Shown one piece after another: positions 18,091-37,314 of a DNA stretch of 64,000 nt. Position 1 is the stretch's first letter; every line of letters begins with the position of its first letter. Below the pieces are notes generated by a model, which was given only the letters and a program-made list of their open reading frames with translations, made no database searches and was not told the DNA's origin. The stretch lies in NCBI GenBank assembly GCA_045536425.1, contig JAZSNN010000031.1:60203-124202 (forward strand), written 5' to 3'. The stretch comes from Oscillospiraceae bacterium. Its GTDB lineage: Bacteria > Bacillota > Clostridia > Oscillospirales > Ruminococcaceae. The translations under genes and the position numbers were made by a program.

Positions 18091-18101
18091 GGAGATATAA
18101 A

Positions 18102-18671: not shown

Positions 18672-18696
18672 AATATCAAAAATTAAAGGAGAAATT

Positions 18697-19017
18697 ATGA
18701 TGAAAAAAATACTAGTAATGCTCTTGGTTGTGATTATATTACTCACAAATGTTGGATGCGGGTCAAAAAGCAATTCTATTGATTCGCAAGATTCTAATTA
18801 TACGGAAGCAGAACTTAAAGATTTTAAAGAAGAACTAAGAGAATTGTTGTTGGGAGCTAGTAAAGCCACCGTAGAGGATGCATTAGGTTCAGCCTATGAG
18901 GTTTCAGGAGGCACTTACTTTTATGTGTTACCTAAGCAGCGTTTGGTGGCCGCAATAACTTATACATTCAATGGTTACAATCAGGTTGTTAAAACAGTAA
19001 CTTTTCTTGATTTGTAA
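18697..19017 (+). CDS. small lipoprotein
   Basis: 106 aa with signal peptide and lipobox LTNVGC|GS; RBS AAAGGAGA upstream. Confidence 0.5.
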   Translation: MMKKILVMLLVVIILLTNVGCGSKSNSIDSQDSNYTEAELKDFKEELRELLLGASKATVEDALGSAYEVSGGTYFYVLPKQRLVAAITYTFNGYNQVVKTVTFLDL

Positions 19018-19445: not shown

Positions 19446-19449
19446 ATTT

Positions 19450-19645
19450 TTCTCCTTTTGATGAAATGCGCTTTGCGCATGAAATGAATTCTTCATGAAA
19501 TGCAGCCACGGCTGCATGAAATAAAATTTGCCCAAATTTAATTTTTCAAACAATGTGCCACATCCGAAACGGATGTGGCACATTTCATGCTTTAGCATTT
19601 AATTCACAGCGTGAATTTCATTTGCCGTGAGGCAAATTTCATTAC
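19450..19645. repeat. array of six short GC-rich hairpins, each abutting a CATGAAAT/ATTTCATG motif (three forward then three inverted)
   Basis: Hairpins gcgctttgcgc, cagccacggctg, gtgccacatccgaaacggatgtggcac and catttgccgtgaggcaaat. Motif copies lie at ~19487, 19506, 19530 (forward) and ~19587, 19605, 19625 (reverse). Confidence 0.5.
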
Positions 19646-19660
19646 AAATAATCTGCGATT

Positions 19661-19755
19661 ATTTGTTAAGTGCTTCGTTTACTGCAACTGCGCAAGCAAC
19701 TGTCATACCAACCATGGGGTTGTTACCAGCGCCGATGAGACCCATCATCTCAACG
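19661..19755. repeat. left direct repeat (attL-like): displaced duplicate of the last 31 codons of the GGGtGRT-family gene
   Basis: 91/95 identity with 36309..36403. All four mismatches fall on synonymous third codon positions when read on the minus strand (...GIGAGNNPMVGMTVACAVAVNEALNK*). Confidence 0.75.
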
Positions 19756-19888
19756 CATATTGAACCAGTAGATAAAACAACTCCACAAATATAGCCCGAA
19801 AGTCTTTGTAAAACCTAATCTTTAAACGTCAAATCAAATACACCAAACACATCGTTTTAAGTTTCCTTAAACGCATTATAACGTGTTT

Positions 19889-22012: not shown

Positions 22013-22065
22013 ATTTTGTGCTCCTTTGTGCTTTTTCTACATTATAGCACACAATTAGACACAAA

Positions 22066-22272
22066 TCAATCGAGATGATTGATGTCGTTTATACGGATCG
22101 CCTCAATCTTGTTGTGTTTTGCAAAACAATCTAGCTTTAGTGGTAATGAATATTTTGTTATATTTTGTATAACAAATCTGTTCTCATAAAAATACACAAT
22201 GTACAAAGCATCATTGTCGAATTTCAAAATATCTCCCGCACGAATTTGATTGTTCAATTTATCCACAAACAT
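22066..22272 (-). CDS. small hypothetical protein, co-oriented immediately upstream of the 707-aa gene
   Basis: 68-aa ORF, 53 nt upstream of the 707-aa gene start, same strand. Confidence 0.4.
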   Translation of the reverse strand: MFVDKLNNQIRAGDILKFDNDALYIVYFYENRFVIQNITKYSLPLKLDCFAKHNKIEAIRINDINHLD

Positions 22273-22436
22273 TGTACCACTCCACTTTATAATCTTAATA
22301 TATTATAATCATACGACACCAATAAACATTCTTGACACACAAACTCACGCTTATTTCTTTTCGCTAAATTATGTAGATAGCATTATTTTGTGCTCTGATG
22401 CTATAAATATAATTTTAAAAAGGATTTGAAAACACT

Positions 22437-22799
22437 ATGGATAAACAAGAAAACAACATCAATAAAGCCGCTGAAACCCTAACCAAAGAACTAGATAACA
22501 TGAGTGCCGAGGGACTACACGATTTCTTCATGTTCTTCTATAAGTTGAATCACCAGCACTATAACATGATTGTCCCAGACAAGTTCGAAGAATTTCTTGA
22601 AGCCTTTGACAGTAATCCATTTAAGATTAATGACGATAAGGCGTTTAGAAAGCAACTGATAGATAATATCATCAAGTATGCTTTCGATCATATGAGTTTG
22701 ATAACTGCTGCCGTACTGATCAAAAAGAAGTTTACGGTAGAGGAAATTACACAAAATTACTACTCTATTATTGACGCATTCACAAACGAATGGTTTTAA
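22437..22799 (+). CDS. hypothetical protein
   Basis: 120-aa ORF with AAAAGGA RBS, followed by a terminator-like hairpin at ~22850-22890. Confidence 0.4.
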   Translation: MDKQENNINKAAETLTKELDNMSAEGLHDFFMFFYKLNHQHYNMIVPDKFEEFLEAFDSNPFKINDDKAFRKQLIDNIIKYAFDHMSLITAAVLIKKKFTVEEITQNYYSIIDAFTNEWF

Positions 22800-23061
22800 T
22801 TTACTTTTGCACACATATTGATAGCACAAAATATCAATTTTTGTTGTCGCAACAAAAAGAAAAGCTGATGATTTCTTATAAATCGTCAGCTTTTTAAATT
22901 TTTTAATTATTTTTTGAAAATTCTAAAAATTTGAAAACTTTACCGTATTATATGTTAAGGAGGTTATTATAATTAAAGTTAATTAAAAATTTTGTGATTT
23001 AATTAAAAGTATTAAAATTTATTGATTTTAGAATTAGTATTTATTTTATGAAATTTATTTA

Positions 23062-23406
23062 ATGAAAGGACTTAAAAACGTTATGTTTAAAAAATTTAGT
23101 TTAAAAACTATTCAACAACAGCTCTCAACTCTAACCTATGATCAAATCGAATTGCTCTTCTTTACGTTCAAGCAACTCAATCTCGACCGTAATTTCTTTT
23201 CAACCGAAAAGTCTCACATGAAATTTATCGTCGATCTATTCGAACTTCCATGTAACAGAAACCCCTCATCTTTTAAGACCTTTATTACATATTCCATCCC
23301 CAAGTATACCTCCAAATCAAAATACCCTCGATTACTACAAACTATAGAAATGATAAAAAAAGATTACACCCTCAATCAAGTAATCAATAACCTTATCAAA
23401 AAATAA
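23062..23406 (+). CDS. hypothetical protein
   Basis: 114-aa ORF with AAAGGA RBS. Confidence 0.4.
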   Translation: MKGLKNVMFKKFSLKTIQQQLSTLTYDQIELLFFTFKQLNLDRNFFSTEKSHMKFIVDLFELPCNRNPSSFKTFITYSIPKYTSKSKYPRLLQTIEMIKKDYTLNQVINNLIKK

Positions 23407-23599
23407 CTAAACTTAAGACGTTCTTGCAACCTTTTATTGCAAGAACGTCTTTTCTTTTGCCAAATTAATATCACTTATATAAAGTCTTAACCTTACATAC
23501 TATTTTGTTCATAAGACCCCTTTTGTTCAATTTTCGAACAACCATTTTATTTTTATTCATATTACTCAAGATACAGCTAATACATTTTCTAAATAAAAC

Positions 23600-23760
23600 T
23601 ATTATAAATTTTTACCCAAAAATTTATAATATAAATATTATTAATTTAATATTATTAATTTATTATTATTTTTATTTAAAATATCAACCATATACATCCA
23701 AAAACTTAACCACCGCACATCAAAAATCCAACCATATACATCCAAAAATCCGACCATTCA
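23600..23760. repeat. AT-rich tract plus two exact 20-bp direct repeats (iteron-like), putative replication origin of the island
   Basis: CAACCATATACATCCAAAAA occurs at 23685..23704 and 23729..23748. It is preceded by a nearly pure A/T stretch (aatattattaatttaatattattaatttattattattttta). The RepA_N-like gene lies immediately to the right. Confidence 0.45.
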
Positions 23761-23790
23761 AATTTTGCACCAAACTTGTATATAATAAAA

Positions 23791-23809
23791 GCCCGCGCAA
23801 AGTGCGGGC
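23791..23809. terminator. hairpin GCCCGCGCAAAGTGCGGGC with flanking A/T runs (terminator of the RepA_N-like gene, also serving the plus strand)
   Basis: Perfect 6-bp GC stem with a 7-nt loop, followed by A/T runs on both strands. Confidence 0.45.
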
Positions 23810-23816
23810 AAAATGT

Positions 23817-24209
23817 TTAAAAAGAAAACTGAAACTTTTCGTTCTCCTCTTCGTTCGAATTTGAATTTAATCTAAAATCACTATATAACTTGTTAAATGC
23901 CGCTGGATCGAATTTAAAATATCTCTTCTTTGGCATCCCATGATATTTAACTTTAATGATACCATATGTTTCAAGTTCTTTACACGAAACCAATTGTTGA
24001 TGTTTACTTAACCCCGTATTGTAATACATATTCTCAACCGTACTAAAGAACCAACCACCCTGTTGTAATCCGCCATGTTCTTTCCAATATGTATATTCAG
24101 AATATATTTCCGATAACATAACCGCCGTATTTAAATTAAACTTTCGAATAAACGGTCGCGGAAGTCTAACAAAATCACTTTCGAACATCTTATCTAATTT
24201 ACTTTTCAT
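23817..24209 (-). CDS. RepA_N-like winged-helix replication initiator (short form)
   Basis: 130 aa. The segment LSEIYSEYTYWKEHGGLQQGGWFFSTVENMYYNTGLSKHQQLVSCKELETYGII matches the RepA_N / DnaD-like wHTH pattern (GWFF.T.E.m...TGLS..QQ...K.LE..GiI). Adjacent to iterons. Confidence 0.45.
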   Translation of the reverse strand: MKSKLDKMFESDFVRLPRPFIRKFNLNTAVMLSEIYSEYTYWKEHGGLQQGGWFFSTVENMYYNTGLSKHQQLVSCKELETYGIIKVKYHGMPKKRYFKFDPAAFNKLYSDFRLNSNSNEEENEKFQFSF

Positions 24210-24332
24210 ATAACAATATAAGTAGATCTTAAAATTTTATATATAGATATAATAAACCCACTTATCCTTTCAAAATACTATACAGTATTTTTAAAAGAAT
24301 CAAATCAAACAAAAAACAATACGCTAAATTAA

Positions 24333-24860
24333 TTGAATAAATCAAAAGCCCGAGATAGATCTATTAACATCAGAAAGATAATCATTATGAAAACAACGAA
24401 TCGAACAAAATCAGATTTACAAAGACTGATTAAAGAATCCCTCGTCAAACTAGACGCAAGACAATTCAAAACACTTTATGCCATTATTGTTCATTGTCGC
24501 GCACATGATAAACATTTTATAAGCACACAGAACTTCTTCAACCTCTGGTGCGAACTTAATATTCTATGTGCCGACTTTGACGAAAGTTTTCCTAGTCCGT
24601 ACGACGATCACTTACTACTCAAATCCTTCTGCAGTGCTCACCCGTATTATTTTATAGATATATTACCATTAGACCTAATCGAAAAACTCTTTTCAGAACA
24701 CTTAGACCTAAACTTAAACATATTATTGAATCTAATTCAAACCATATATGAACAAGATTCTAAAGCCGCACACCAGTATATTATAGATGAATTCAACATT
24801 GAGCACACCGCAGATAAACTTGTTGCCGACTTGGAAGCGCACATCAAATATTACTCATGA
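24333..24860 (+). CDS. hypothetical protein
   Basis: 175-aa ORF; an alternative start MKTTNRTK lies at ~24387. Confidence 0.4.
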   Translation: MNKSKARDRSINIRKIIIMKTTNRTKSDLQRLIKESLVKLDARQFKTLYAIIVHCRAHDKHFISTQNFFNLWCELNILCADFDESFPSPYDDHLLLKSFCSAHPYYFIDILPLDLIEKLFSEHLDLNLNILLNLIQTIYEQDSKAAHQYIIDEFNIEHTADKLVADLEAHIKYYS

Positions 24861-24953
24861 ATTTGTTTAGGGCCATAGTTAAAAACTATAGCCCTAACTA
24901 TTCTATTTTTACAAACTATTCAATCGACTTAAGTTGTATATTTTTTAGATTTA

Positions 24954-25445
24954 TTATGATTCTGTTAGTGTGTAACAAGCACTATTATATTCACCATTTT
25001 TATCAACATAATATTTCAACATACAATAATCAAAATCGTCTATACTTGAAGTTTCTTCAAAAACAACTTTATATTTTCTTTTCTCAAATTTGTCGAAATC
25101 GTACTCTTCTACCGTATACAGTTTTCTTTCAGCAACACCTTTTACGTTTTCATCCTTACAGCCCGAAGCTGCAGCGCAAGTAGCAGGCATCCATTTTTTA
25201 TTTTCATCTGTTTCTTTCACAAGAGTTTCGCAAAATGTTGATTCAGTATATTTCATAATAAGACTATCTCTAACTACAAGTAGAAACTCGTCACTCCAAT
25301 CGAGCACTGATGGTAGATCACCCTTTTCACCCGTACAACCAAAATAAACCTTGGGGACTTGATAAGAAATATCACCATCACTAACAAAATCTTTCTTTTC
25401 AATTTCTGGTCTCATAGGAACCGAACCATTAAAATAATTATTCAT
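24954..25445 (-). CDS. hypothetical protein
   Basis: 163-aa ORF, Cys-containing; GGAAAGG RBS region. Confidence 0.4.
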   Translation of the reverse strand: MNNYFNGSVPMRPEIEKKDFVSDGDISYQVPKVYFGCTGEKGDLPSVLDWSDEFLLVVRDSLIMKYTESTFCETLVKETDENKKWMPATCAAASGCKDENVKGVAERKLYTVEEYDFDKFEKRKYKVVFEETSSIDDFDYCMLKYYVDKNGEYNSACYTLTES

Positions 25446-25544
25446 ATTTTTTACCTTTCCGCCTTAATAGGCATTTCAAATTTTTTTAATATTTTTTGTT
25501 TTGGGGCTATATTGTTGATTTATAGTCCCTATGTTGTTGATAAC

Positions 25545-26078
25545 TTAGAACTTTAATCCATCAAACACCAACTGACGCTGAGAAGGCACAGGTGGAACAT
25601 ACTCGTTAGGCATAGGCGAAGTATTGTTAAATGAATATCCAGTCACCGACTTCTGATAAGTACTTGTACAGGATACCGGATCTCTCCACTCGGGAAGCTT
25701 AGCCTGATAAGCACGAGTAATACAAAAGAGCACCTTTGCATAGACAGCGCCATTATAGCTATCGTGCTTAACTCTTACAGCTCCGTCTTTACCAACCCAA
25801 GACTCATAGTCATTAAGGTCATAGTTGGTGATTCCAAAGGACTCAAAGAACTTGCCGAGATGATGATTGGTTTTCTCGGGGTTGCTAGGGTCTAGAATGA
25901 TTCGATGCCAAAGTTTTCCTGGATAGCCAGACACATCAAGCATAATCTCAAATCCATCGTTGCCCGAGCTATAGGTTTTAATTGTTACTTTGCTCACTAC
26001 TACTCTGTGGTCTCCCTCAGGGATGAGGGTATTCTCGTTAATCTTAAAGTCTGCTGCGTTATAATTCCATGTAATCAT
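25545..26078 (-). CDS. hypothetical protein (possibly phage/island-associated)
   Basis: 177-aa ORF with AAGGAG RBS; no family confidently recognised. Confidence 0.45.
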   Translation of the reverse strand: MITWNYNAADFKINENTLIPEGDHRVVVSKVTIKTYSSGNDGFEIMLDVSGYPGKLWHRIILDPSNPEKTNHHLGKFFESFGITNYDLNDYESWVGKDGAVRVKHDSYNGAVYAKVLFCITRAYQAKLPEWRDPVSCTSTYQKSVTGYSFNNTSPMPNEYVPPVPSQRQLVFDGLKF

Positions 26079-26143
26079 TTTTTGCTCCTTTGATTTAATA
26101 AAATTTTATATAAGTATTTAGCCGTTTTAACGTCGGCCGCACG

Positions 26144-26338
26144 TATAACAAAAAATATAAAACAACTACAAAATCCAATATTCAATTTCCAAAGATCAAT
26201 TCAAAAAATACAAACACCAAAAACCACTTAACTCAAACTAAACCACCAAAAACCACACCCCACTTTCTAAACACCAACCAAACAACCACTCCTTTTATAC
26301 TTTTATAAAAACAAACAATAACCACCCCCAAAAAAATT
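26144..26338. repeat. ~195-nt tract with a single G on the plus strand, containing two exact CACCAAAAACCAC repeats
   Basis: Visual scan shows only one G (26194) between 26144 and 26338. Thirteen-mer copies lie at 26215..26227 and 26244..26256. Additional AACCAC-type half-repeats are present. Confidence 0.5.
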
Positions 26339-26411
26339 TGTATATAGTACAATACGGTAAAATTTCTTATAATTTTGCATTTTTGTAAAAAATTTTAAAA
26401 AAAAAGCTATA

Positions 26412-26450
26412 AAGACTCCGCACCTTAAAAACAAAGTGCGGAGTCTTTAT
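26412..26450. terminator. bidirectional terminator hairpin AGACTCCGCAC...GTGCGGAGTCT
   Basis: Perfect 11-bp stem flanked by A/T runs on both sides. Confidence 0.5.
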
Positions 26451-26580
26451 AAATTTACAGTATCAAAAGAAACCTTAAAGATTTTGTATTAAAAGGGGCT
26501 CCCGAAACAAGCAAAACACGACATAATATAAGTATAAAAAGAAGCTTTAGTTTGTTTCAATACTGAATCAGGAGGCCAAC

Positions 26581-27294
26581 ATGGCAACATATGCTTATTG
26601 CAGAGTATCAACACCGCATCAGAGGTTAGAGAGACAAATTACCAACATCACAGCAATCTATCCAAACGCTATTATCATTAGAGAATTCTTTACAGGAACA
26701 ACCCAGAACAGACCCAACTGGGAAAAACTCATGGGGCAAATAAAATCGGGAGACGTCATCGTTTTTGATAGTGTCTCTAGAATGAGTCGTAATGCCGAAG
26801 AAGGTTTTAGAGATTACAAAATGTTATATGAGCGTAACATTAGCCTCGTCTTTCTCAATGAACCTTTAATTAATACTTCTGTCTTTGATTCTACACGTAA
26901 CAACTTATTGAAAATTGATATCGAAACCGGTAATAATGCCGTTGATGAGTTTTTCAAGGGCAACGTTCAGCTCATAAATAACTTTATGATGGCTCTTGCC
27001 GAACAACAAATCAAAGCAGCCTTTGAGCAATCCGAAAAGGAGGTCACAGACTTACATACACGCATTAGTCAGGGGATGCGTGAGAGCAAAAAGAACGGTA
27101 AACAAATCGGGCTCACAAAGGGAACGACATTGATTACTAATAAATCAATCAAGTGCAAAGAAATAATAAAAAAGCATGCCACCGAATTCGGTGGCATGCT
27201 TAGTGACAAAGAGGTAATGACACTCTGTAAAATATCAAGGAATTCTTATTACAAATATAAGGGAGAATTAAAGAAACAAAGTACCAACACCTAA
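26581..27294 (+). CDS. small serine recombinase (resolvase/invertase family) with C-terminal HTH
   Basis: 237 aa with catalytic Ser in YCRVSTPHQ, conserved D/R residues (DSVSRMSRN) and a C-terminal HTH; GGAGG RBS. Confidence 0.85.
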   Translation: MATYAYCRVSTPHQRLERQITNITAIYPNAIIIREFFTGTTQNRPNWEKLMGQIKSGDVIVFDSVSRMSRNAEEGFRDYKMLYERNISLVFLNEPLINTSVFDSTRNNLLKIDIETGNNAVDEFFKGNVQLINNFMMALAEQQIKAAFEQSEKEVTDLHTRISQGMRESKKNGKQIGLTKGTTLITNKSIKCKEIIKKHATEFGGMLSDKEVMTLCKISRNSYYKYKGELKKQSTNT

Positions 27295-27296
27295 TA

Positions 27297-27578
27297 TTAT
27301 AAACTTTCCAAAAAAGCTATTAACAACTTCTTTTGCTTTGGTGTAAGTTTAGAAAACGCAGTAGCGAGTTCGTCCTGTTGTATTTCCACCCTAAAGAATT
27401 CTTGGAGGGAAATATCCATAGCATCACACAAGAGTTGCAAGTGACCGACAGTAATATCAGCTTGTCCAAGTTCAACCCTGCGAAGATGCGTTTGAGAAAC
27501 CCCTGCCCTTTCCGCAAGACCATTTTGGGTAAGCCAACTCTTATTTCTTAATTCAACCAATCTTTCTCCAACGTTCAT
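27297..27578 (-). CDS. XRE-family helix-turn-helix transcriptional regulator
   Basis: 93 aa, LTQNGLAERAGVSQTHLRRVELGQADITVGHLQLLCDAM; AAGGAG RBS; divergent from the four-gene operon. Confidence 0.7.
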   Translation of the reverse strand: MNVGERLVELRNKSWLTQNGLAERAGVSQTHLRRVELGQADITVGHLQLLCDAMDISLQEFFRVEIQQDELATAFSKLTPKQKKLLIAFLESL

Positions 27579-27591
27579 AATACGACTCCTT

Positions 27592-27678
27592 AATTAGTCT
27601 TATAAGAATATACTAACACTTTAATAGGGAAAATATTAGTTTTATAAGGTTGACGAATTAGTCTTATAGTGATATAAT
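27592..27678 (+). promoter_or_regulatory. sigma-A-type promoter (TTGACG-17-TATAAT) with two AATTAGTCTTATA direct repeats (candidate XRE operators)
   Basis: -35 at 27650..27655 and -10 at 27673..27678. Thirteen-mers lie at 27592..27604 (overlapping the XRE gene RBS) and 27656..27668 (inside the promoter spacer). Confidence 0.45.
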
Positions 27679-28001
27679 TTGTAATAATACCAAACGATAT
27701 GTCGAAAGAAGAAAAATGAGTACAAACAACAACCTAGCAAAAGATGAAGTAATATCAAAAGCTAGAAGCGAATTCAGTACTACTTGATAAAGCATTATCG
27801 ATTAAAAAGATTGGGAATTTTGTATTATAACGTTACTTGCCAAACTATAATTCAGCAGATCGAAAAGCACACCAAAAAGTGGGTAGTATACAGTTTTTGT
27901 ACTTACGCTTCAAATTTGATAAAAACGCAAATTCCATCGATGTGAGTGCATAGTGTTTTTCTTATCAATATGGTTTGGCAACTACTGGAGTTTGTGTTTT
28001 T

Positions 28002-28033
28002 AGTGCGACTACTTCGGTAGTCTCACTTTTTGT
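28002..28033 (+). terminator. intrinsic terminator/attenuator in the leader upstream of the four-gene operon
   Basis: AGTGCGACTAC-TTCG-GTAGTCTCACT hairpin followed by TTTTTG, ~140 nt before the operon start codon. Confidence 0.45.
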
Positions 28034-28170
28034 TTCAATCTCTTTTAAAAAATTAAACCTAAGACTTTATAGAAATTGATTTTTAAACTCGAACCAAATT
28101 CTAAACGACTTTTTAAATAAATCCAATTAAATTCACACCAAAACATCTCACATTTCGAGGAGGTTTAATA

Positions 28171-30966
28171 ATGAAAATACAAGCTATAGAGTGTACAAGA
28201 TGTAAGGGTGAACTCAAAGAAAAAGGAAAGTATTGGGAATGTCCTTACTGCGGAGCAAAGTTTTCAGTACAATTAGATGCCGACGGCGATCAAATTATTT
28301 ATAGAAACGATGCTCCCAAAGAGTTGCCGTGTGGACAAGTTGCTGAGAGAGCGACACAAATCAATGTTGATAAAATTACGACAGTAAATATTAAGCCACC
28401 TAAAACTATCGAATCTGATGTGTATCAAAGTAGTGATGATTTGGATTATTACGACAATGTTAACCTGATTGTCACATATCTAAAAAAAGAAAAATGGGAT
28501 ATCGCTCAAGATAACATTTGTAAGCTTCGCAATTTGAACGATCCATGTTCAACAGCTGTTGCGGATTGGTACGGCATGGCCTGGGAACACAAAGTGCATA
28601 ATGACTCTGAATTAGTGCATTCTTTTACCGCCATCACGGACGATGAATTACAAAAACTGTATAATCTCTTGCTAAATGCTATGCCCGATTTCAGAAAACG
28701 AATTTTGGATCTCGTTTTAAATTCGGGTTACGTTGGTGATGAATCGACTAATAAAATTTTGGTAACCACTTTACCATTCTTATTTAGTGAGTTGATTTAT
28801 TCACCCGAAGAAAGAGATGAAAAAATAGAGATAATTTTTGACAAAACAATATCTCTTAAATATGCAGAAACATTTAAATATCTTCTTACACATGCTTTAG
28901 AAAGTCACGAGGTTGATCGCTACATTGGCTATTTGGAACGTTTTGCCGATAATTGTGATCCAGAGTCCTCTCAAGAATATTATTCAATGATTATTTCTGT
29001 GGATCCCGGAAACGCACAAGCACACCACAGTTTAGTCAACGCAGATATAAAAGCTAATTCTTCAGCTCAAAAGTGTATCGATGACTTTGAAAATTTACTT
29101 TTGTATTCTCAAGATCCTATCAAAGACGTTGAGACATTCATAACAGTTTTAATCAACGAACAGACAACGATTGAAGATAAAGCAGAATTTATGTGGGCCT
29201 TGTTAAGCTATCTTCACGAAGATACGGAAACACAGACTGAGGCAATGTCTCTGTATGCTAATTTGCTACTTCAATCGGAGTTGTGGAATAGAGCAAGTGA
29301 ATTTTATAGCGCAGTACTTTCTAGAGATACCAGTAATGCAAAAGTATATTTCAATTTATGTTTGGCTGATATGCAGGCTAAAGATACTAGAGAGTTGATT
29401 GCTAAAGAAGATGACTTCTCTGGTCATCCGTACTATAAAAAAGCTCTTGCTCAGGCATATAAAACCAGTAAGATTTATTCCAAAGAACTTGAAGGGCTCA
29501 TAGATTCTCGCGACAAAAGAATTAAAGACGAACAAGCCAAAAAGAAAAGAATTAGAAATTTCATTTTTGCAGCACTAATTATCGTTGTAATTGGGGGGAT
29601 TATTGCTGGATTCAAGTTGTACAGCAACAACAAAAAATATAATGAAGCTAACATTAGTTTCATTGTAACCAGCAAAGAATACCCTTATGACTCTGTTTAT
29701 CCTTGCTACTTCTTCCTAGATATGAATGTCAAAAACAACAGTTCTTTGGAGATCAACAGAATTGATGGAATTATGCGCTTTTATAACGATGAAGGTAAAC
29801 TCTTATATGAGTCTAACATTTGGCTAACTGGCAACCTAGAACCAAAAAAAGACTACAATTACGAATTAGAAATCGAACAATATGCAACAGAAGAAACCAC
29901 AGAACTTCACAACACTCCTCTATCCAGTCTAAAAATCACTTGGGAGTTAACCAAGGTAACATATGAAAACAACGAGGTCAAAGAATATACCTCGGGCAAA
30001 GAATATGTGATAAATGAAATTGCGGATTCAAACGACAAACAAAACTCTCAAGAAAAACCTCAAGATGATTTAGAAGATAATTCAAACGGGCCTTCAAATG
30101 ATCAGTTTGACGAAGAAACAATCATTTCCCAAGCGGAATCTCTTGCAGCCACAGGCAATTATGACGGAGCATGTGAACTACTTGAAAGAACTGGATATAA
30201 CGATACATATTTATATCAAGCATACAAATATGCAAGTGAAGGAAACTTTGCCGATGCAGTAAAATATGGATTGACAGTTGTTGTTATTCCTCAAGGCATT
30301 GAGACAATTCCAGATAATTGTTTCAAAATTGAATATGGTACAAATGAACTCAAGAAGGTGGTTCTTCCGACATCTATAAAGAGTATTGGAGCCTCTGCCT
30401 TCTATGGATGTACTAAACTCGTCGAGATTGACCTACCGAGCGGGCTAAAAAGCATCGGGAACTATGCCTTTGCTAAATGTAAATCCTTGAAGTCCATTGA
30501 AATACCTAACAGTGTGGAAAACATGGGTTCGAACGTATTTCAAGAGTGCACTAGCCTTCAATCCGCATCAATCCCCGGCAACCTGAATACAGTTCCGTCG
30601 CAAACATTTATGGATTGCTCAAGTTTGACAACGATAACTCTACAGAACGGTATAGAGATTCTTGATAGCGGTACATTTTCGGGATGCACCAACCTTGTTA
30701 ATATCACATTGCCTGATTCTTTAGTTTCTATTGAGAGTAATGCGTTTTATAAGTGTTCTAGTCTCGTTGAAATCACAATACCAGCCAAGGTCAACTTAAT
30801 TAGATATTCTGCTTTTTCTAGTTGTTCTTCCCTGCTAAAAGTATATTTTGCAAATCAAGAGGGTTGGCAATATGAATATGGCGGTTCAAAGATTAATGTA
30901 ACTAACGCTCAAGAGAACGCAAAAGAATTAAGAAGTGTTACATCAAACACAATAGAACGAAAATAA
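28171..30966 (+). CDS. transmembrane protein: N-terminal zinc ribbon plus helical TPR-like cytoplasmic domain, one TM helix, extracellular BspA-type leucine-rich repeats
   Basis: 931 aa. The N-terminal zinc ribbon is CTRCKG...ECPYCGAKF. The single TM helix is IFAALIIVVIGGIIAGFKLY, at ~residues 462-482. About 8 tandem ~23-aa repeats follow (xIPxSVxxIGxxAFxxCxxLxxIxxP), a pattern typical of BspA-like LRRs. GAGGAGG RBS. Confidence 0.7.
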   Translation: MKIQAIECTRCKGELKEKGKYWECPYCGAKFSVQLDADGDQIIYRNDAPKELPCGQVAERATQINVDKITTVNIKPPKTIESDVYQSSDDLDYYDNVNLIVTYLKKEKWDIAQDNICKLRNLNDPCSTAVADWYGMAWEHKVHNDSELVHSFTAITDDELQKLYNLLLNAMPDFRKRILDLVLNSGYVGDESTNKILVTTLPFLFSELIYSPEERDEKIEIIFDKTISLKYAETFKYLLTHALESHEVDRYIGYLERFADNCDPESSQEYYSMIISVDPGNAQAHHSLVNADIKANSSAQKCIDDFENLLLYSQDPIKDVETFITVLINEQTTIEDKAEFMWALLSYLHEDTETQTEAMSLYANLLLQSELWNRASEFYSAVLSRDTSNAKVYFNLCLADMQAKDTRELIAKEDDFSGHPYYKKALAQAYKTSKIYSKELEGLIDSRDKRIKDEQAKKKRIRNFIFAALIIVVIGGIIAGFKLYSNNKKYNEANISFIVTSKEYPYDSVYPCYFFLDMNVKNNSSLEINRIDGIMRFYNDEGKLLYESNIWLTGNLEPKKDYNYELEIEQYATEETTELHNTPLSSLKITWELTKVTYENNEVKEYTSGKEYVINEIADSNDKQNSQEKPQDDLEDNSNGPSNDQFDEETIISQAESLAATGNYDGACELLERTGYNDTYLYQAYKYASEGNFADAVKYGLTVVVIPQGIETIPDNCFKIEYGTNELKKVVLPTSIKSIGASAFYGCTKLVEIDLPSGLKSIGNYAFAKCKSLKSIEIPNSVENMGSNVFQECTSLQSASIPGNLNTVPSQTFMDCSSLTTITLQNGIEILDSGTFSGCTNLVNITLPDSLVSIESNAFYKCSSLVEITIPAKVNLIRYSAFSSCSSLLKVYFANQEGWQYEYGGSKINVTNAQENAKELRSVTSNTIERK

Positions 30967-31003
30967 AACTGAATTCAAACGCATAATGTAAAGGGGTTTT
31001 AAT

Positions 31004-32998
31004 ATGGCAAAATACATTATAGAATGTCCACGTTGTGGTAAACCAATTGAAGCTAGTACAGGACTATTTGCGAAAAAAGAAATTGTTTGTCCTGAATGTA
31101 AAAGAAAAATTGATCTTGCTATGGAGAAAATGGTAGAAGAAACTTGTCCTCGTTGCGGAGGTAGAGTTGTATACGACCGCACAAAACCTTCTTCTGCAAT
31201 TTGCCCTACTTGCCATACAAATATTAAGTCTGGCAAGCAAGAGGAAATAACTTGTCCTTCTTGCCAAATGCACTTGAATGTTGATACAAACGCAAAAACA
31301 TGCACTTGCCCTCAATGTAAAACAGAAATTGATGTACAGGCTAGATTGGCGCAAAAAGAAAGTGGCAAAACCGCACAAGTAATTAAATGGGATGGCGAAA
31401 ACGGAGTGTTTATTTATCGTCATCCGATGGAGAACTTCAAACTCGGTTCTCAACTAATTGTTAAAGAGAGCCAAAAAGCCGTATTTTTCCGCAACGGTAA
31501 AGCTTTGGATGTTTTTGGTCCTGACAGATATACTCTTGAAACTCAAAATCTACCTTTGATGGAAGAAATCCTAAAATATCCCACTAATGCAGATTTGACA
31601 TTCAGCTCTCAGGTATACTTCATTAGGACTGATGGACCAATATCAGTTAATTGGGGCATTCCAAAAATGAAATTGCGAAACCCGGGTATGGATTTCTATG
31701 TTGATGTAAGTGCACGCGGTTCGGCTTTTATGCAGATTAAAGATGGAAACGAAAACGTTAGAAAGTTCCTTTCAAAGGTAATAGGTACAGCCACAACTAA
31801 TGGTGTAATAGAGAAGTATGATTCAGAGTATATAACAAATAAATTCCGTGATTATATTACAGCTCGTTTGGGATCGTTACTTGCAGAAATTATCACCTCA
31901 AGCAATATCAATGTCTTAGATCTTGCATCCAAAAGGGCCACTATCAGTGATATGCTGGTCAAGGACTACAACGAATTGTTAGAGGAATACGGCTTAGAGA
32001 TTCCTCCCAAACAATTTATGGTAACAAGCATAGATCCTGTTATTACCCCTGAAGTTGAAACTTGGATTCGCCAAGAGTCTGAAAAGGTGCTCAAAGTTCG
32101 ACAAGAGGGTGTCCTCAAGGCCGAAGCTGAAGCTCGTCAAGGAAGAGTTCTTGTTGAAGAGCAAACCGAAGTTCAAAAGAAAATCCTTAGGACTCAAGGT
32201 GAAGGCGAAGAACGCAAAATCTCTGCAATGGCTGATGCTGATGTTACTCGTATTGAGGCACAAGGTGCGGCTGATGCTACTATTATTTCAACGAAAGCTA
32301 ATGCGGAATCTACCATTATATCTAGTCAGGCAGAAGCGGAAGCGACAATTGTTACCGGACGTGCTGAAGCAGAAACTACTAGACTTACCGGTCAAGCATC
32401 AGCTGAAGCATATAGAGCACAAGCTATCGCAGAGGCTGATGAAATGCACGCCAAGGGTTATACATATGCACAAGAAACCTCTCGCCAAATTGGTTTGGAA
32501 GCATTGCAGAATGGTTTGCCCGGAACCGGTGTGAATATTTCTTCCTCTTCCGAAAAAGGTGGTTCTGGACTTACAGACACACTCGGTGATATGATTGGAC
32601 TTGGTGTTGGTTTGAGCGCAATGGGCGGCGTTGTAAATATGACAAAGGATATTGTGAGTCCTATCATAGGCCAAATCTCTGATATTGGCAAACAACCGAT
32701 AGAAACCCCAGTTGCTACTATGCCTCAAACGAATTTGGTCAGTGCGTGGAATTGTGCTTGTGGCAAATCATGCATCACATCAAAATTCTGTCCAGAATGT
32801 GGTTCTCCCAAGCCGGTAACTTTGGATAACGGCGTTTGGAATTGCACCTGTGGTCAGAGTGGAATCACTTCTAATTTCTGTCCTAATTGTGGTGCTCGTA
32901 AGCCTATAAGCAATACAAATTGGAATTGCCACAACTGCGGACAAACTGACATTACAAGCAATTTCTGTCCTAACTGTGGCAGTAAGAAAGGTGAATGA
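31004..32998 (+). CDS. SPFH/band-7 domain protein flanked by three N-terminal and three C-terminal zinc ribbons
   Basis: 664 aa. There are six N-terminal CxxC pairs. The central region fits SPFH (VIKWDGENGVFIYRHP...KESQKAVFFRNGKALDVFGPDRYTL). An Ala/Glu-rich coiled coil follows (QGAADATIISTKANAESTIISSQAEAEATIVTGRAEAE), then a Gly-rich linker. The C-terminus has three WNCxCGxxxITSxFCPxCG double-zinc-ribbon repeats. Confidence 0.7.
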   Translation: MAKYIIECPRCGKPIEASTGLFAKKEIVCPECKRKIDLAMEKMVEETCPRCGGRVVYDRTKPSSAICPTCHTNIKSGKQEEITCPSCQMHLNVDTNAKTCTCPQCKTEIDVQARLAQKESGKTAQVIKWDGENGVFIYRHPMENFKLGSQLIVKESQKAVFFRNGKALDVFGPDRYTLETQNLPLMEEILKYPTNADLTFSSQVYFIRTDGPISVNWGIPKMKLRNPGMDFYVDVSARGSAFMQIKDGNENVRKFLSKVIGTATTNGVIEKYDSEYITNKFRDYITARLGSLLAEIITSSNINVLDLASKRATISDMLVKDYNELLEEYGLEIPPKQFMVTSIDPVITPEVETWIRQESEKVLKVRQEGVLKAEAEARQGRVLVEEQTEVQKKILRTQGEGEERKISAMADADVTRIEAQGAADATIISTKANAESTIISSQAEAEATIVTGRAEAETTRLTGQASAEAYRAQAIAEADEMHAKGYTYAQETSRQIGLEALQNGLPGTGVNISSSSEKGGSGLTDTLGDMIGLGVGLSAMGGVVNMTKDIVSPIIGQISDIGKQPIETPVATMPQTNLVSAWNCACGKSCITSKFCPECGSPKPVTLDNGVWNCTCGQSGITSNFCPNCGARKPISNTNWNCHNCGQTDITSNFCPNCGSKKGE

Positions 32999-33714
32999 AT
33001 ATGAAGCTAACAAAACGTAAAAAATCGGTGATAATAATTTATTCAATCGCCACCATAGTATTTCTTATCCTGACAATAGGCATTCCTTTTGCCAAACCTG
33101 CTGCCTCTTGGATGATGTTTGCTTTTTCCATTGTGTCATTAACAGGTGGATGTGGTATTACCTTATTTGCTTTTAGTAAATCAGAAGAATTAAAGAGCAA
33201 ATTTTACGGATATCCTGTTTTTAGAATAGGAAGCCTTTACACAATTATTCAACTAGCATTAACAGTTTTGATATACATCATTGGTGCTTTTGTAAACATT
33301 CCGTACTGGGTTGGTTTAGCAATATCTGTTTTACTTATGGGACTGGCTTCCATCGGAGTAATCACAACAGATACCGCAAGGGATTATGTTGAGGAAATAG
33401 ATACAAAAACCACAGCAACGGTTAAAACGTTGACAAGATTCAATGTGGATATCTCTGATTTGGTAGACGTTTGTAAATACGATTCTGCCAAAAGCTCCCT
33501 GAAAAAGTTGGCTGAGAAGTTTAAATATAGTGACCAGGTTTCATCTTCTGCGACGGAAGAAAAAGAGGCACTTATTATGGAGGAACTGAATAACTTAAGA
33601 GAAATCATAACTAGAAATGATGCAGAAAAAATCATCGAACAGGTTGAGGCGGTTTCTAATCTGCTTAATAGCCGAAACCGCATTTGCGAATCGGCCAAAT
33701 CAACAAACAGATAA
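32995..33714 (+). CDS. membrane protein (4 predicted TM helices) with cytoplasmic coiled-coil tail
   Basis: 239 aa; the start ATG overlaps the previous stop (ATGA), indicating translational coupling. Confidence 0.55.
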   Translation: MNMKLTKRKKSVIIIYSIATIVFLILTIGIPFAKPAASWMMFAFSIVSLTGGCGITLFAFSKSEELKSKFYGYPVFRIGSLYTIIQLALTVLIYIIGAFVNIPYWVGLAISVLLMGLASIGVITTDTARDYVEEIDTKTTATVKTLTRFNVDISDLVDVCKYDSAKSSLKKLAEKFKYSDQVSSSATEEKEALIMEELNNLREIITRNDAEKIIEQVEAVSNLLNSRNRICESAKSTNR

Positions 33715-33769
33715 TGTTGTTTAATATTGACTTAGTCAATAATTTATAAAAAAGAAAGAGGTAATTATT

Positions 33770-34537
33770 ATGAGTAGTTCAGTAGAAATTAGGTGGTTGA
33801 GAGCCACTATGAACAGTGTCAACGGCGCAGGAGTTGAACATTGGTACTTCAATGCTACCGATAAGGAAATTAAGTACTTAACTTTTGTTTATGTTCCGTA
33901 CAATCAGGTTGGTGATCAGGTTCAATGCACAATGTCCAGGAAAAGCGAGGTTTCATGCAAATTAACAGGTCCTATTAAACCTTATCACGAAAACAATGTG
34001 AAATGGGAAGCTTTGTGGTATAACCCCACTGTAACGAAGATTGAATTAGTTCAGATTCATATTGACTATATGGATGGTTCTGAAGAAACCATCGATGGTG
34101 CAGATGTTGTAGATATGTCTGATAAACAAAGTGTGTATTATGAAAAAGTTGAAAAACCTGCAGAGGAAGAACGAGCTGAAAGAGAAAAACAATTGGCTAT
34201 TCAGCTTGCTGAAAGTGAAAAGAAGGCGGCAGAAAAAAAGGCAATTGATGATAGAAATAATGAATTAGCAACGGCATATTTGTGTTTCAAGGTGTTCAGC
34301 TGCTTTAAGAAAATGAAAGACGATGACGAAATGAAATTCCATGTTAATCAAGGTTTGTGGCTTTTCATATTTGAAGTTATTGGGATTATCTGTGCTATCA
34401 TAAGCGGTTTTGCTACTCTTCTTTCCCTTGTTTTTGAAGGACTAGCTATATTCCTTTCTATTAAAGGATTTAAAGAAACTAGAGAAGGCAAACGTTTTGA
34501 AATTCCTCTCATCAGCAAAATCAAATTAATCAAATAA
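33770..34537 (+). CDS. protein with N-terminal soluble domain, charged coiled coil and C-terminal TM hairpin
   Basis: 255 aa with AGAGG RBS. The coiled coil is EEERAEREKQLAIQLAESEKKAAEKKAIDD. Hydrophobic helices are GLWLFIFEVIGIICAIISGFATLLSLVFEGLAIFL. Confidence 0.55.
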   Translation: MSSSVEIRWLRATMNSVNGAGVEHWYFNATDKEIKYLTFVYVPYNQVGDQVQCTMSRKSEVSCKLTGPIKPYHENNVKWEALWYNPTVTKIELVQIHIDYMDGSEETIDGADVVDMSDKQSVYYEKVEKPAEEERAEREKQLAIQLAESEKKAAEKKAIDDRNNELATAYLCFKVFSCFKKMKDDDEMKFHVNQGLWLFIFEVIGIICAIISGFATLLSLVFEGLAIFLSIKGFKETREGKRFEIPLISKIKLIK

Positions 34538-34651
34538 AAATTGGTCTGATTTTGTAGGGTTTTGGATATAAAAGTATTAATATAAATCAAAGCCCTGAAT
34601 ACGAAAAGTTATTGAAATGATTCAAGTCACTTGTAAAGTAATACATAGTAA

Positions 34652-34688
34652 TCCGGCACATAGAAAATTCTATGTGCCGGATTTTTTG
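34652..34688. terminator. strong intrinsic terminator ending the four-gene operon
   Basis: CCGGCACATAG-aaaatt-CTATGTGCCGG perfect stem followed by ATTTTTTG. Confidence 0.65.
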
Positions 34689-34812
34689 TATAACGAAAAG
34701 ATAGCCTACGCAATTGCGCGGGCTATAATCATAATTTCGTTTGTAATTTTAAATTATACTCATCAATTCACAACCTGCTACTGTGTATCTATACAAATAA
34801 CCGTCGTTCAAA

Positions 34813-35151
34813 TTATTCACCTATTCTATCGATAGCATCCTTAATTTCCTCTATATTGGCGTCACGAGTCAAAAAATATTTATTCAAACCATTTACTACT
34901 GAAACAATCTCTTGATAGTAGCAGTGAAGTGGTGTATCATCCAAATCGCTAACCCACCAGCCAAAATCGTGCATTTCAAGAAGCAACCCTGCCAACTCTT
35001 TGGGTACGAGTTTTTCTTTGCTATATTCTTCAATAATTTCACAAGTGTCTTTAAACAAAGCACGGACTTTCTCAAAACCCAGATTGTTGAATTCAATTAC
35101 ATCCCACGTTGCCTTGTGCCAATCGTTAGATATCATTTCTATTCTTCCCAT
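34813..35151 (-). CDS. hypothetical small cytoplasmic protein
   Basis: 112-aa ORF between the integrase gene and the operon terminator; acidic, no motif recognised. Confidence 0.4.
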   Translation of the reverse strand: MGRIEMISNDWHKATWDVIEFNNLGFEKVRALFKDTCEIIEEYSKEKLVPKELAGLLLEMHDFGWWVSDLDDTPLHCYYQEIVSVVNGLNKYFLTRDANIEEIKDAIDRIGE

Positions 35152-35222
35152 ATATAACCTCCCGACAATTTTAGACTAATTAAATTATAACACATAATCT
35201 TTAAAAAGGTTATACTTTAAGA

Positions 35223-36161
35223 CTAACTTTTCAATGAAATGTGCTTCCTGCCGTGGAACTTATCTAACACATTTATTTCATCAACCTGTTTTGCCACATC
35301 ACTGACTAAGAGGTTAATATAATTCTGTGTTATATCTAAGCTTGAATGACCTAACAGTTTTGAGAGTGACACGACGTTGCCTCCACTCAGAATCCATTGT
35401 TTCGCAAACGTATGTCTATACCTGTGTATTCCTGTTGTCTCTACGCCGCGCTTTTTATTATACTCATAGAGCTTATGATAGCAGGTACTTTTAATCAGTT
35501 GTTGACCAAACACATTGCAAAACAGATAGTCATCATCAGACTTATGCTGTCGATATTTTAAATATTCGGTCAAGATATTGACCATTGTTTGATTAAGTGG
35601 AACGATCAACGGTTTTCTATTTTTAGTCACATTCACATAGACGACGCTGTTATCAAAATCAATATCCTTGACTTTTATGTGCATCAGGCTTCTTTGTCTC
35701 ACAGCAGTTGAAAACAAGAAGTTAGTCATAACCCAGCACTGATATTCAGTGAAAGAGCATTTCTTTAAATCGGGCTTCTTAAGCAATAACCTCAGTTCCT
35801 GCTCGTCATACGTTTCTACGTGGGATTTATCGACCTTTATTGACTTCATTTTAAAAGGCTCAATATAGCCCTCATTCATAAGAAAATGCAATGTGGTTAT
35901 CAAATCTCGCAGGTATGAGTTAATACTGACATCATTGTTAAGCGTTGCCTTCAAGTGCAAGACATATCTGTTATATTCATTTTCGTTGAGTCTTTCTATT
36001 GGCATTTCAGGATCAAAGAACTTGAAAAACTGTGTATAGCTTTGGCGATAATGGTTGATAGTTCCTTGTCTTAAATTACGCTGTCGGCAATACTCCAGAT
36101 ACCTATCACACCCCTCTTCAAAAGTAATAGATTTTGTTGCTTTCATTTTCAGTTTGTGCAT
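35223..36161 (-). CDS. tyrosine-type site-specific integrase
   Basis: Conserved R...HxxR...Y catalytic signature (HRYRHTFA ... LGHSSLDITQNY) with an N-terminal SAM-like core-binding domain. Start chosen at MHKLKMKATK with a GTGAGG RBS 9 nt upstream. The gene abuts the right att repeat. Confidence 0.85.
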   Translation of the reverse strand: MHKLKMKATKSITFEEGCDRYLEYCRQRNLRQGTINHYRQSYTQFFKFFDPEMPIERLNENEYNRYVLHLKATLNNDVSINSYLRDLITTLHFLMNEGYIEPFKMKSIKVDKSHVETYDEQELRLLLKKPDLKKCSFTEYQCWVMTNFLFSTAVRQRSLMHIKVKDIDFDNSVVYVNVTKNRKPLIVPLNQTMVNILTEYLKYRQHKSDDDYLFCNVFGQQLIKSTCYHKLYEYNKKRGVETTGIHRYRHTFAKQWILSGGNVVSLSKLLGHSSLDITQNYINLLVSDVAKQVDEINVLDKFHGRKHISLKS

Positions 36162-36306
36162 TGTAACATACCTCACTTTTAACATAAAAAATATAGACAC
36201 ATCATCAAAGAAAACTCTAAAATGATGTGTCTAACTTTTTATTTATTGGTTTTTGTAACAGGTCTTTTACAAGTTGCCCAAAAGCTTTAAAAAGCCTTAT
36301 AAATCC

Positions 36307-37314
36307 TTATTTATTAAGTGCTTCGTTTACTGCAACTGCACATGCAACTGTCATACCAACCATGGGGTTGTTACCTGCGCCGATGAGACCCATCATCTCA
36401 ACGTGTGCGGGAACGGAAGAGGAACCTGCAAACTGTGCATCGGAGTGCATTCTTCCCATTGTATCGGTCATACCGTAGGAAGCGGGGCCTGCAGCCATAT
36501 TGTCAGGATGGAGAGTTCTTCCTGTGCCGCCACCGGAAGCAACGGAGAAGTACTTCTTGCCCTGCTCAACACACTCTTTCTTGTATGTGCCTGCAACGGG
36601 GTGCTGGAAGCGTGTGGGGTTGGTGGAGTTACCTGTGATGGAAACGTCAACGCCCTCTTTGTGCATGATAGCAACGCCCTCACGAACGTCGTCTGCACCG
36701 TAGCAACGAACCTTTGCACGCTCACCGTCGGAGTATGCTGTTTCTTTTACTATCTCAAGCTTGCCTGTGTAGTAGTCAAATTTTGTCTGCACATAGGTGA
36801 AGCCGTTGATTCTGGAGATAATCTGTGCGGCATCCTTACCGAGACCGTTGAGGATAACGCGGAGGGGCTCTTTACGAGCTTTATTAGCACTTCTTGCAAG
36901 ACCGATAGCGCCTTCAGCAGCTGCGAAGGACTCGTGACCTGCGAGGAATGCGAAGCACTTTGTCTCATCTCTGAGAAGCATTGCGCCGAGGTTACCGTGG
37001 CCGGTACCAACCTTACGGTCGTCAGCAACGGAGCCGGGGATACAGAAGGACTGGAGTCCGAGGCCTATCTTCTCTGCAGCCTCTGCAGCGGATTTAACCT
37101 GATCCTTGATAGCGATAGCGCAGCCTACTACATAAGCCCAGCCAGCGTTCTCGAAGCAGATAGGCTGAATACCTTTAACGATATTATAAGCATCAACACC
37201 TGCTTTATCGCAGATTTCCTTAGCTTCCTCAATGGAGGAAATGCCGTGTTTATTAAGTTCTGCGTTGATTTGGTCTATTCTTCTTTCATAACTTTCAAAC
37301 AAAGCCATTGTCAA
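36307..37314 (-). CDS. GGGtGRT-family protein
   Basis: 335 aa containing the eponymous SGGGTGRTLHP motif and a Gly/Ala-rich C-terminus. Confidence 0.7.
   Translation of the reverse strand: MTMALFESYERRIDQINAELNKHGISSIEEAKEICDKAGVDAYNIVKGIQPICFENAGWAYVVGCAIAIKDQVKSAAEAAEKIGLGLQSFCIPGSVADDRKVGTGHGNLGAMLLRDETKCFAFLAGHESFAAAEGAIGLARSANKARKEPLRVILNGLGKDAAQIISRINGFTYVQTKFDYYTGKLEIVKETAYSDGERAKVRCYGADDVREGVAIMHKEGVDVSITGNSTNPTRFQHPVAGTYKKECVEQGKKYFSVASGGGTGRTLHPDNMAAGPASYGMTDTMGRMHSDAQFAGSSSVPAHVEMMGLIGAGNNPMVGMTVACAVAVNEALNK
36309..36403. repeat. right direct repeat (attR-like) forming the current 3' end of the GGGtGRT-family gene
   Basis: The repeat starts exactly at the stop codon of the gene at 36307..37314 and is contiguous with the remainder of the gene. 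Confidence 0.75.

Follow-up and report, generated by a model that had tools for sequence, protein, structure and literature searches.

What might a gene cluster do that joins a receptor-like leucine-rich-repeat (LRR) protein to an SPFH protein full of zinc ribbons and to further membrane proteins, and that travels on a mobile element? The cluster in question lies in a 64,000-nt stretch of DNA from an Oscillospiraceae bacterium (assembly GCA_045536425.1, contig JAZSNN010000031.1, positions 60,203 to 124,202 of the forward strand), the whole of which we call the window and whose open reading frames (ORFs) were taken from a six-frame list. A preliminary description of this DNA had grouped four genes, here g1 to g4, into one operon under a divergent regulator. 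Upon computing the architecture, synteny, TIR distribution and mobility of the cluster, we found that g1, g2 and g3 make up a conserved module with many occurrences among gut and rumen Clostridia, that most relatives of g1 carry a TIR domain that g1 itself lacks, and that the cassette is cargo of a mobile element. In our preferred reading, to which we give about an even chance, the module would be a membrane sensor-scaffold system of the conflict or immune type, with the window holding a TIR-less variant of it.

A three-gene module in gut and rumen Clostridia

The four genes of the operon are arranged as follows.

28171..30966, plus strand: g1, ORF of 931 aa
31004..32998, plus strand: g2, ORF of 664 aa
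32995..33714, plus strand: g3, ORF of 239 aa, its start overlapping the g2 stop (ATGA)
33770..34537, plus strand: g4, ORF of 255 aa

Scanning one genome per species, we obtained at least 576 full-length relatives of g2, nearly all of them from gut or rumen Clostridia with a few outliers, and 84 related loci were fetched in a first round (labelled L001 onward; L085, L086 and L087 denote relatives of the window cassette). Translationally coupled to g2, g3 is also its constant partner: it directly followed g2 in 62 of the 76 loci with a complete g2, mostly at gaps of -25 to +6 nt, and where the flanking DNA sufficed (42 loci), g3 was found in 40/42 and a g1-type protein in 41/42. The g1-type family ('ZT') consists of large proteins that carry TPR repeats and, at the N terminus, a CxxC-x14-16-CxxC ribbon; they are encoded just before or after the g2-g3 pair and often in two to five copies per locus. 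Beyond g1-type genes and g3, no other partner recurred in the 84 loci. Looking for co-occurrence elsewhere had been proposed as a check on the unit, and homologues of g1, g2 and g3 indeed stood together in dozens of species; the four-gene unit as first drawn therefore holds across species for g1 to g3, but does not extend to g4.

g4 was missing from all 84 first-round loci, which rules it out as a core component, and a copy of it (61% identical) was found only in L087, the nearest relative having that region. Nor does any conserved protein occupy the position behind g3, which is filled by unrelated genes. Judged by its distribution, g4 is a lineage-specific accessory gene.

The regulator type varies too. 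In 18 loci (e.g., L016, L019, L021, L030 and L031), the first gene encodes a ribbon-helix-helix protein of ~65 aa with the motif GRTRNEI, instead of the divergent XRE-family gene found in the window.

The related loci contained a number of further genes. Small genes lie between the g1-type and SPFH genes at L017:9547-9996, L043:2742-3212, L067:4066-4677 and L028:9127-9996; some of the inserted genes are HEPN-like, with an R-x4-H motif, and one is SIR2-like and matches the LmuA and ThsA models of the defence catalogue that we used throughout, PADLOC-DB v2. Toxin genes such as ParE and YafQ occur inside some relatives' operons or flank them. In L086, whose SPFH protein is 75% identical to g2, a 426-aa FtsH-like gene (AAA + Peptidase_M41, 1062-2342) is located two genes upstream of the g1-type (LRR_5) gene and ~4.5 kb upstream of the SPFH gene, an arrangement that recalls HflK/C-FtsH.

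Architecture of the encoded proteins

g2 matched Pfam Band_7_1 (PF13421) with E = 5.6e-31 and 108 bits against a cut-off of 24. Three zinc ribbons (residues 8-105) precede its SPFH core (138-355), which is followed by an Ala/Glu-rich helical region (356-505), a Gly-rich, conserved and semi-hydrophobic segment (526-544), and three further ribbons (582-661), a layout that the preliminary description had recognised in its essentials and that both the Pfam match and the conservation of the cysteines support. Across 31 homologues with identities down to 43%, the cysteines of all six ribbons (CxxC...CxxC, with C102/C105 as the second pair of the third ribbon) were either invariant or conserved to 90% or more. 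No transmembrane (TM) helix was found in g2, its highest 19-residue hydropathy of 1.41 being reached in the Gly-rich segment, and we predict it to be a soluble SPFH protein of the YdjI class. The g2-family profile also matched the SPFH proteins erlin-1 and erlin-2 in the PDB; erlins form cages. At the DNA level, the three C-terminal ribbons are still visible as tandem repeats at 32755-32979 (87-90 nt units, 65-73% identity). The CxxC style common to g1 and g2 had been taken as a functional link between the two proteins, a suggestion that we do not retain, given that the resemblance is that of generic zinc ribbons and is not specific.

For g1, the Pfam, AlphaFold and Foldseek analyses returned the same architecture that had been read from the translation, namely a zinc ribbon, TPR-like helices, one TM helix and BspA-type LRRs. 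The single ribbon at residues 8-27 (C8/C11 and C24/C27) is followed by a linker that is predicted to be disordered (45-91) and by an all-alpha, TPR-type solenoid (93-432) in an AlphaFold model built on five sequences only. Pfam TPR matches were sub-threshold, and the best Foldseek matches of the solenoid were all TPR proteins (OGT, consensus TPR and Tom70). A single TM helix at 465-483, the only hydrophobic helix of the protein, is preceded by a K/R-rich stretch, and from hydropathy and the positive-inside rule we predict an N-in/C-out topology. The C-terminal part contains a beta-rich domain (~500-615) and BspA-type LRRs (~690-905; LRR_5, 9.1e-51), with a partial match to the LRR adhesin HupY/LrrG, and g1 shows neither a signal peptide nor a sortase-type or cell-wall anchor. 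This putative ectodomain (window 29650-30966) is modular, as P0227/P0229 protein comparisons revealed swaps: one protein is ~97% identical to g1 over residues 1-455 and has an unrelated C terminus, and another protein of the window clade keeps the LRRs without the beta-rich domain.

The products of g3 and g4 had both been described as membrane proteins with coiled coils. The membrane assignment stands for both, but g3 was modelled (predicted local distance difference test, pLDDT, 81) with a helical bundle on the cytoplasmic side of four TM helices, and g4 is better described as a ~140-aa N-terminal domain without a Pfam model, which is followed by a charged helix and, C-terminally, by a TM region. 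No convincing Pfam match was obtained for any of the 64 members of the g3 family, a trace match of g3 itself to SLATT_6 (E = 0.033) lying far below the cut-off of that model. The N-terminal domain of g4 (33770-34190, residues 1-140) has 1907 relatives among cluster representatives, in varied architectures; elsewhere, it is combined with LRR_5, TPM and YARHG, SLH or zinc-ribbon domains.

A TIR domain in most relatives of g1

All of the g1-type proteins from other loci that were tested (10/10) matched Pfam TIR_2 above its curated cut-off, at residues ~158-281 and between TPR repeats. A local profile extended this to 83 of 101 g1-type proteins, from 52 loci, the domain being strongly conserved and the motif WVKNEW kept in 82 of these 83; the TIR-bearing proteins are found in the main-clade loci L006-L084 (e.g., L017:12600-15320 and L044:10143-12020). 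The Glu of WVKNEW aligns with a Glu position of the flax L6 TIR that we take to be the catalytic one, and the TIR of the relatives looks catalytically competent. In g1, by contrast, hmmsearch detected no TIR with its filters off, nor was one found elsewhere in the 64-kb window; this search and the all-alpha model together rule out a hidden or degenerate TIR in g1. Sorting the 42 well-flanked loci by the identity of their SPFH protein to g2 gave the following distribution.

SPFH identity to g2 of at least 47%: 5 loci, 0 with TIR
SPFH identity to g2 below 47%: 37 loci, 34 with TIR

When loci with short flanks were counted as well, the TIR was found in 0 of 13 loci of the closer group. The window clade has lost the TIR; in the window copy, the enzymatic output is lost or replaced.

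The C-terminal heads of the g1-type proteins are diverse, with RCC1 (34), DUF6273 (18) and LRR_5 (5) among the 94 that were scanned, next to multi-TM ends and others. DUF6273 is a C-type-lectin-like binding domain that is targeted by diversity-generating retroelements (PMC10743442); a link of the family to such retroelements was ruled out, as only two reverse transcriptases occurred in 92 loci. A TM helix with a K/R-rich N-side was present in about half of the g1-type proteins, and none was predicted in the other half.

Control region of the operon

The cassette spans ~7.4 kb and, beside the four co-directional genes, comprises the following elements.

27297..27578, minus strand: divergent XRE-family helix-turn-helix (HTH) regulator, 93 aa (Pfam HTH_3, 3e-11)
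27592..27612: operator-like direct repeat, copy 1, AATTAGTCTTATA, found by repeat search
27650..27678, plus strand: sigma-70-type promoter TTGACG-17-TGnTATAAT, 11/12 consensus matches
27656..27676: direct repeat, copy 2, AATTAGTCTTATA, filling the -35/-10 spacer of the promoter
27679..28170, plus strand: operon leader of ~490 nt, between promoter and g1
34650..34683, plus strand: bidirectional intrinsic terminator closing the operon, a 15-bp stem followed by a T-run

The divergent regulator with its direct-repeat operators, the promoter, the ATGA overlap of g2 and g3 and the strong terminator after the last gene were all found where they had first been placed. Of the two intergenic gaps that had been given as 38 and 55 nt, the one between g3 and g4 is indeed 55 nt, but that between g1 and g2 is 37 nt. 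The location of one AATTAGTCTTATA copy inside the promoter spacer fits repression by the XRE protein, which also matches the HTH, capH and control-protein-like models of PADLOC, all of them generic for HTH proteins. A regulatory RNA in the leader was ruled out, as no Rfam match was obtained over its ~490 nt and its fold was unexceptional (z = -0.92). A 266-nt segment of the leader (~27880-28146), within which a weak hairpin and its T-run occupy 28007-28022, is present in L087 and cleanly missing from the 97%-identical cassette L085, where the deletion lies between two CACACCAAAA repeats.

The integrative element

That the operon is island cargo, as first proposed, is borne out by a 97-nt att duplication, an integrase and low GC, with the att repeats and the integrase delimiting a mobile element of 16.6 kb.

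19659..19755: attL, left one of two 97-nt direct repeats, a duplicate of the GGGtGRT 3' end
19756..36306: integrative element of ~16.6 kb, low GC (from the GC profile, att repeats, PHROGs matches and integrase)
23817..24209, minus strand: replication-initiator-like protein (PHROGs match)
25545..26078, minus strand: SSB-like protein (PHROGs match)
26581..27294, plus strand: small serine recombinase (resolvase) of 237 aa, directly upstream of the cassette (Pfam Resolvase, 4e-19)
34813..35151, minus strand: small ORF of 112 aa downstream of the operon, with no Pfam or PADLOC match below E = 0.09
35223..36200, minus strand: tyrosine integrase (Pfam Phage_integrase, 2.5e-30), at the element's right end
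36307..36403: attR, right one of the 97-nt repeats, where the GGGtGRT gene (36307..37314, minus strand) has its true 3' end

The two att copies are 96% identical to each other, and the GC content is 0.27-0.38 inside the island against ~0.45 in the flanks. It has been proposed that small serine recombinases mark defence cassettes (PMC13552941). Homology between the window and L085, a near-identical cassette from another sample, starts ~100 nt upstream of the serine recombinase, and in L087 a recombinase fragment lies on the opposite side of the operon. A fixed chromosomal neighbourhood in related genomes had been named as an observation that would speak against island cargo; the genomic context of the homologues instead varies, and in the window clade it is often linked to recombinases or integrases, with relatives adjoining integrases, large serine recombinases or relaxases and one of them residing in an ordinary chromosomal setting. 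Carriage by phages or plasmids was rejected, as the full-length g2 architecture was not found in phage and plasmid collections; in IMG/VR, only one of nine matches includes the N-terminal ribbons.

Further genes of the island and its surroundings are noted here for completeness. The 112-aa ORF has a homologue in L001 (7187-7501; phmmer E = 9.8e-9), next to the g1 homologue on its upstream side, and this ORF may move together with the module. On its left end, the element carries a 707-aa ORF (19889-22012, minus strand) that has C-terminal hydrophobic segments and no Pfam or PHROGs match. A second low-GC stretch at 18000-19658, outside the att-bounded element, encodes a SHOCT-domain membrane protein (18072..18671), a lipoprotein-like small ORF (18697..19017) and a 23S rRNA intervening-sequence protein (19095..19598, minus strand). 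It also contains two inverted, sub-threshold matches to Gut-1 RNA, one at 19459-19527, inside the 3' part of the intervening-sequence gene, and one at 19577-19644, overlapping the upper end of that gene. The stretch may be the remnant of another insertion.

Discussion

What speaks most strongly for a conflict or immune role is the TIR domain in the main-clade equivalents of g1. A TIR that looks catalytically competent, together with several paralogues per locus that bear RCC1, C-lectin-like or LRR heads, makes the family look like a sensing system, and a conflict flavour is further supported by the mobile element, by the recombinases, integrases and relaxases that flank relatives of this clade, by the HEPN- and SIR2-like inserts in some relatives, and by the toxin genes inside or beside their operons. 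For the oligomerisation, recruitment, topology and function of the module, we infer the following. Like other SPFH proteins, g2 is predicted to form an oligomeric ring or cage beneath the membrane, and g3 would hold or anchor it there, by analogy with the way in which YdjI is brought to the membrane. The cytoplasmic zinc ribbon and TPR solenoid of g1 are predicted to dock on this g2/g3 scaffold, with the extracellular LRR head as the presumed ligand-binding and rapidly exchanged part, such that the SPFH/four-TM platform might assemble or restrain receptor-type proteins. TIR activity depends on oligomerisation, and in the TIR-bearing relatives this activity would be the output. For the window copy, the candidate outputs are membrane perturbation via g3, or the accessory g4.

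Several observations weigh against a conflict or immune role. Since g1 and the entire 64 kb are without a TIR, the strongest immune argument applies to the relatives and not to this copy. The support for all family members is computational, and a physical association of the three proteins is a prediction. Neighbourhoods are heterogeneous and include housekeeping genes, with known defence genes occurring sporadically, and LRR_5, RCC1 and DUF6273 are also typical surface or adhesin domains of gut Firmicutes. Moreover, with about half of the g1-type proteins lacking a predicted TM helix, outside-in sensing is not the whole story.

We regard it as unlikely, if worth keeping in mind, that the cluster serves envelope stress or membrane maintenance, as a functional counterpart in Clostridia to PspA-SamGHI of Bacillus subtilis. 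Here, the SPFH ring and its partners would sense or stabilise damaged membrane or coordinate wall synthesis, with the ectodomains monitoring the wall or surface. Membership of g2 in Band_7_1, as for YdjI, with a soluble layout of SPFH, low-complexity and zinc-ribbon parts, is in line with this, as are the presence of a zinc-ribbon-bearing membrane protein and a second membrane protein next to the SPFH protein, as in SamGHI, and the co-occurrence elsewhere of the g4-type N-terminal domain with TPM, the domain of YdjH. However, no PspA was found in the window or the 84 loci (a weak negative as far as the local query goes), g3 lacks a TPM domain and g1 an NTF2-like domain, and the TIRs, the paralogue arrays with swappable heads, the patchy distribution and the mobile carriage would be unusual for a housekeeping stress system. 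The surface features of g1 invite a different idea, in which the g1-type proteins would be adhesins anchored in type-II fashion, their heads being BspA-like LRRs, lectin-like domains or propellers; the SPFH/g3 scaffold would cluster or quality-control them, and head variation would reflect binding to host or glycans. Such an adhesin or ligand-display platform would account for the LRR_5 match (9e-51) and the partial HupY/LrrG match, for ectodomains swapped between near-identical cytoplasmic parts, and for the occurrence of the family in gut and rumen bacteria; we nevertheless consider it improbable, as a conserved cytoplasmic region of 450-600 aa and a TIR in most relatives are unexpected for a simple adhesin, as the heads would be cytoplasmic in the roughly one-half of relatives without a TM helix, and as no signal peptide or sortase-type anchor is present. 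Both the stress and the adhesin explanation account less well for the TIR, for the paralogue arrays with swappable heads and for the mobility. That the genes form no functional unit and are merely adjacent island cargo, finally, is scarcely credible: the lack of conservation of g4 and of the regulator type would agree with it, but for g1 to g3 it is contradicted by three families that keep the same order across dozens of species, in overlapping or near-abutting frames.

Returning to the conflict or immune reading, we may take it a step further and speculate, with considerable doubt, that the module represents a new class of immune receptor. In this class, single-pass proteins with swappable extracellular heads and a cytoplasmic TPR-TIR part, a reversed Toll-like layout, would be organised by an SPFH cage and a dedicated four-TM anchor, and surface or membrane events such as phage adsorption or injection would be turned into TIR activity; the window form, as a derived variant, would signal by way of the scaffold or the membrane itself, or would act as a regulator. 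If the conflict or immune reading is right, it assigns a role to the Band_7_1 SPFH family, of which YdjI/SamI is the sole characterised member that we found, and it would tie SPFH membrane scaffolds to bacterial TIR-type immunity, a pairing otherwise known from membrane receptors of plants and animals. It also raises the questions of how a soluble SPFH protein is recruited to the membrane, what purpose the zinc-ribbon arrays serve, and whether bacteria can sense threats outside the membrane. The compact, mobile and TIR-less cassette of the window offers a natural comparison with its TIR-bearing relatives. Carried by several hundred or more species of gut and rumen, the family makes up a sizeable unannotated part of microbiome genomes.

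Comparison with known systems

The module appears undescribed in the literature and the defence catalogue that we searched. PADLOC returned no match for g1 to g4, nor for the TIR-bearing relatives, their SPFH protein or their g3, which rules out a known defence system and agrees with the initial failure to recognise any named one. The combination of genes was not described in the literature searched, where we also found no system of this kind that joins SPFH and TIR domains. Neither the SPFH family nor the g3 family is in PADLOC, and in the searched text of a 2025 survey of TIR systems, neither these families nor any of the terms SPFH, band, flotillin and zinc occurred.

Among characterised systems, SamGHI (YdjGHI) of Bacillus subtilis comes closest, but two of its three partners are not homologous; this pairing of an SPFH protein, YdjI/SamI, with a zinc-ribbon-bearing membrane partner had escaped the preliminary description. 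YdjI, a soluble protein of the Band-7 type, ends in a zinc ribbon and needs the membrane proteins YdjG (zinc ribbon and TM) and YdjH to reach the membrane (PMC8581546, PMC11237479). It recruits PspA and restrains signalling by the membrane partners, which its loss unbalances (PMC8581546, PMC11237479, bioRxiv 10.64898/2026.02.06.704340). g2 resembles YdjI in its Band_7_1 class, its predicted solubility, its low-complexity segment and its C-terminal zinc ribbon, and as in SamGHI, it goes together with two membrane proteins, one of them single-pass and bearing a zinc ribbon. The differences are considerable as well. g2 has six ribbons, three of them N-terminal, as compared with one in YdjI; g1 combines one zinc ribbon with a TPR region, a TM helix and an LRR head, whereas YdjG, by its description, joins an NTF2-like domain to two zinc ribbons and a TM helix; and g3 is an unrelated four-TM helical-bundle protein, whereas YdjH is a TPM protein. 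Unlike samGHI, the module lies on a mobile element, is patchily distributed and comes without pspA. Indeed, no pspA family match was obtained in the window proteins, nor among the 25 of 98 families listed for 150 neighbour proteins, and a phmmer search of the 84 loci with an E. coli PspA query found none, which is a weak negative. The TPM domain was absent from g3 and g4, and from the 25 of 27 families listed for 64 g3 relatives, and no NTF2-like domain was found in g1. On these grounds (no pspA, TPM or NTF2-like domain), a true ydjGHI orthologue was ruled out.

Seen from the side of TIR defence (Thoeris types, SpbK), most g1 relatives are similar in having TIR_2 with a conserved Glu motif beside sensor-like repeats, and some related loci carry SIR2-like or HEPN-like inserts. 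Unlike in Thoeris, g1 of the window has no TIR; Thoeris-type effector domains (SLOG, Macro, SLATT) were absent from g2, g3 and g4, and no recognised effector was found in any member. In their sequence of extracellular repeats, one TM helix and a cytoplasmic TIR, the membrane-anchored relatives are analogous to Toll-like receptors, but the order along the chain is reversed, with the TIR N-terminal and the head C-terminal, and beyond the domains no homology is implied. With BspA-type surface proteins, g1 has the C-terminal LRR_5 array in common, and it differs from them in its large cytoplasmic zinc-ribbon and TPR part and its type-II-like TM anchor without a signal peptide. A flotillin-NfeD or HflK/C-FtsH operon was ruled out, as g2 lacks a TM or hairpin anchor and no NfeD or FtsH family match was obtained in the operon or the window. 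In plants, HIR (SPFH) proteins accompany LRR receptors (PMC13534476), and within our module an SPFH protein likewise accompanies an LRR receptor, a likeness that we offer as analogy only. As in HflK/C-FtsH, finally, the SPFH domain of g2 is followed by a long helical region, suggesting a ring or cage that encloses membrane clients.

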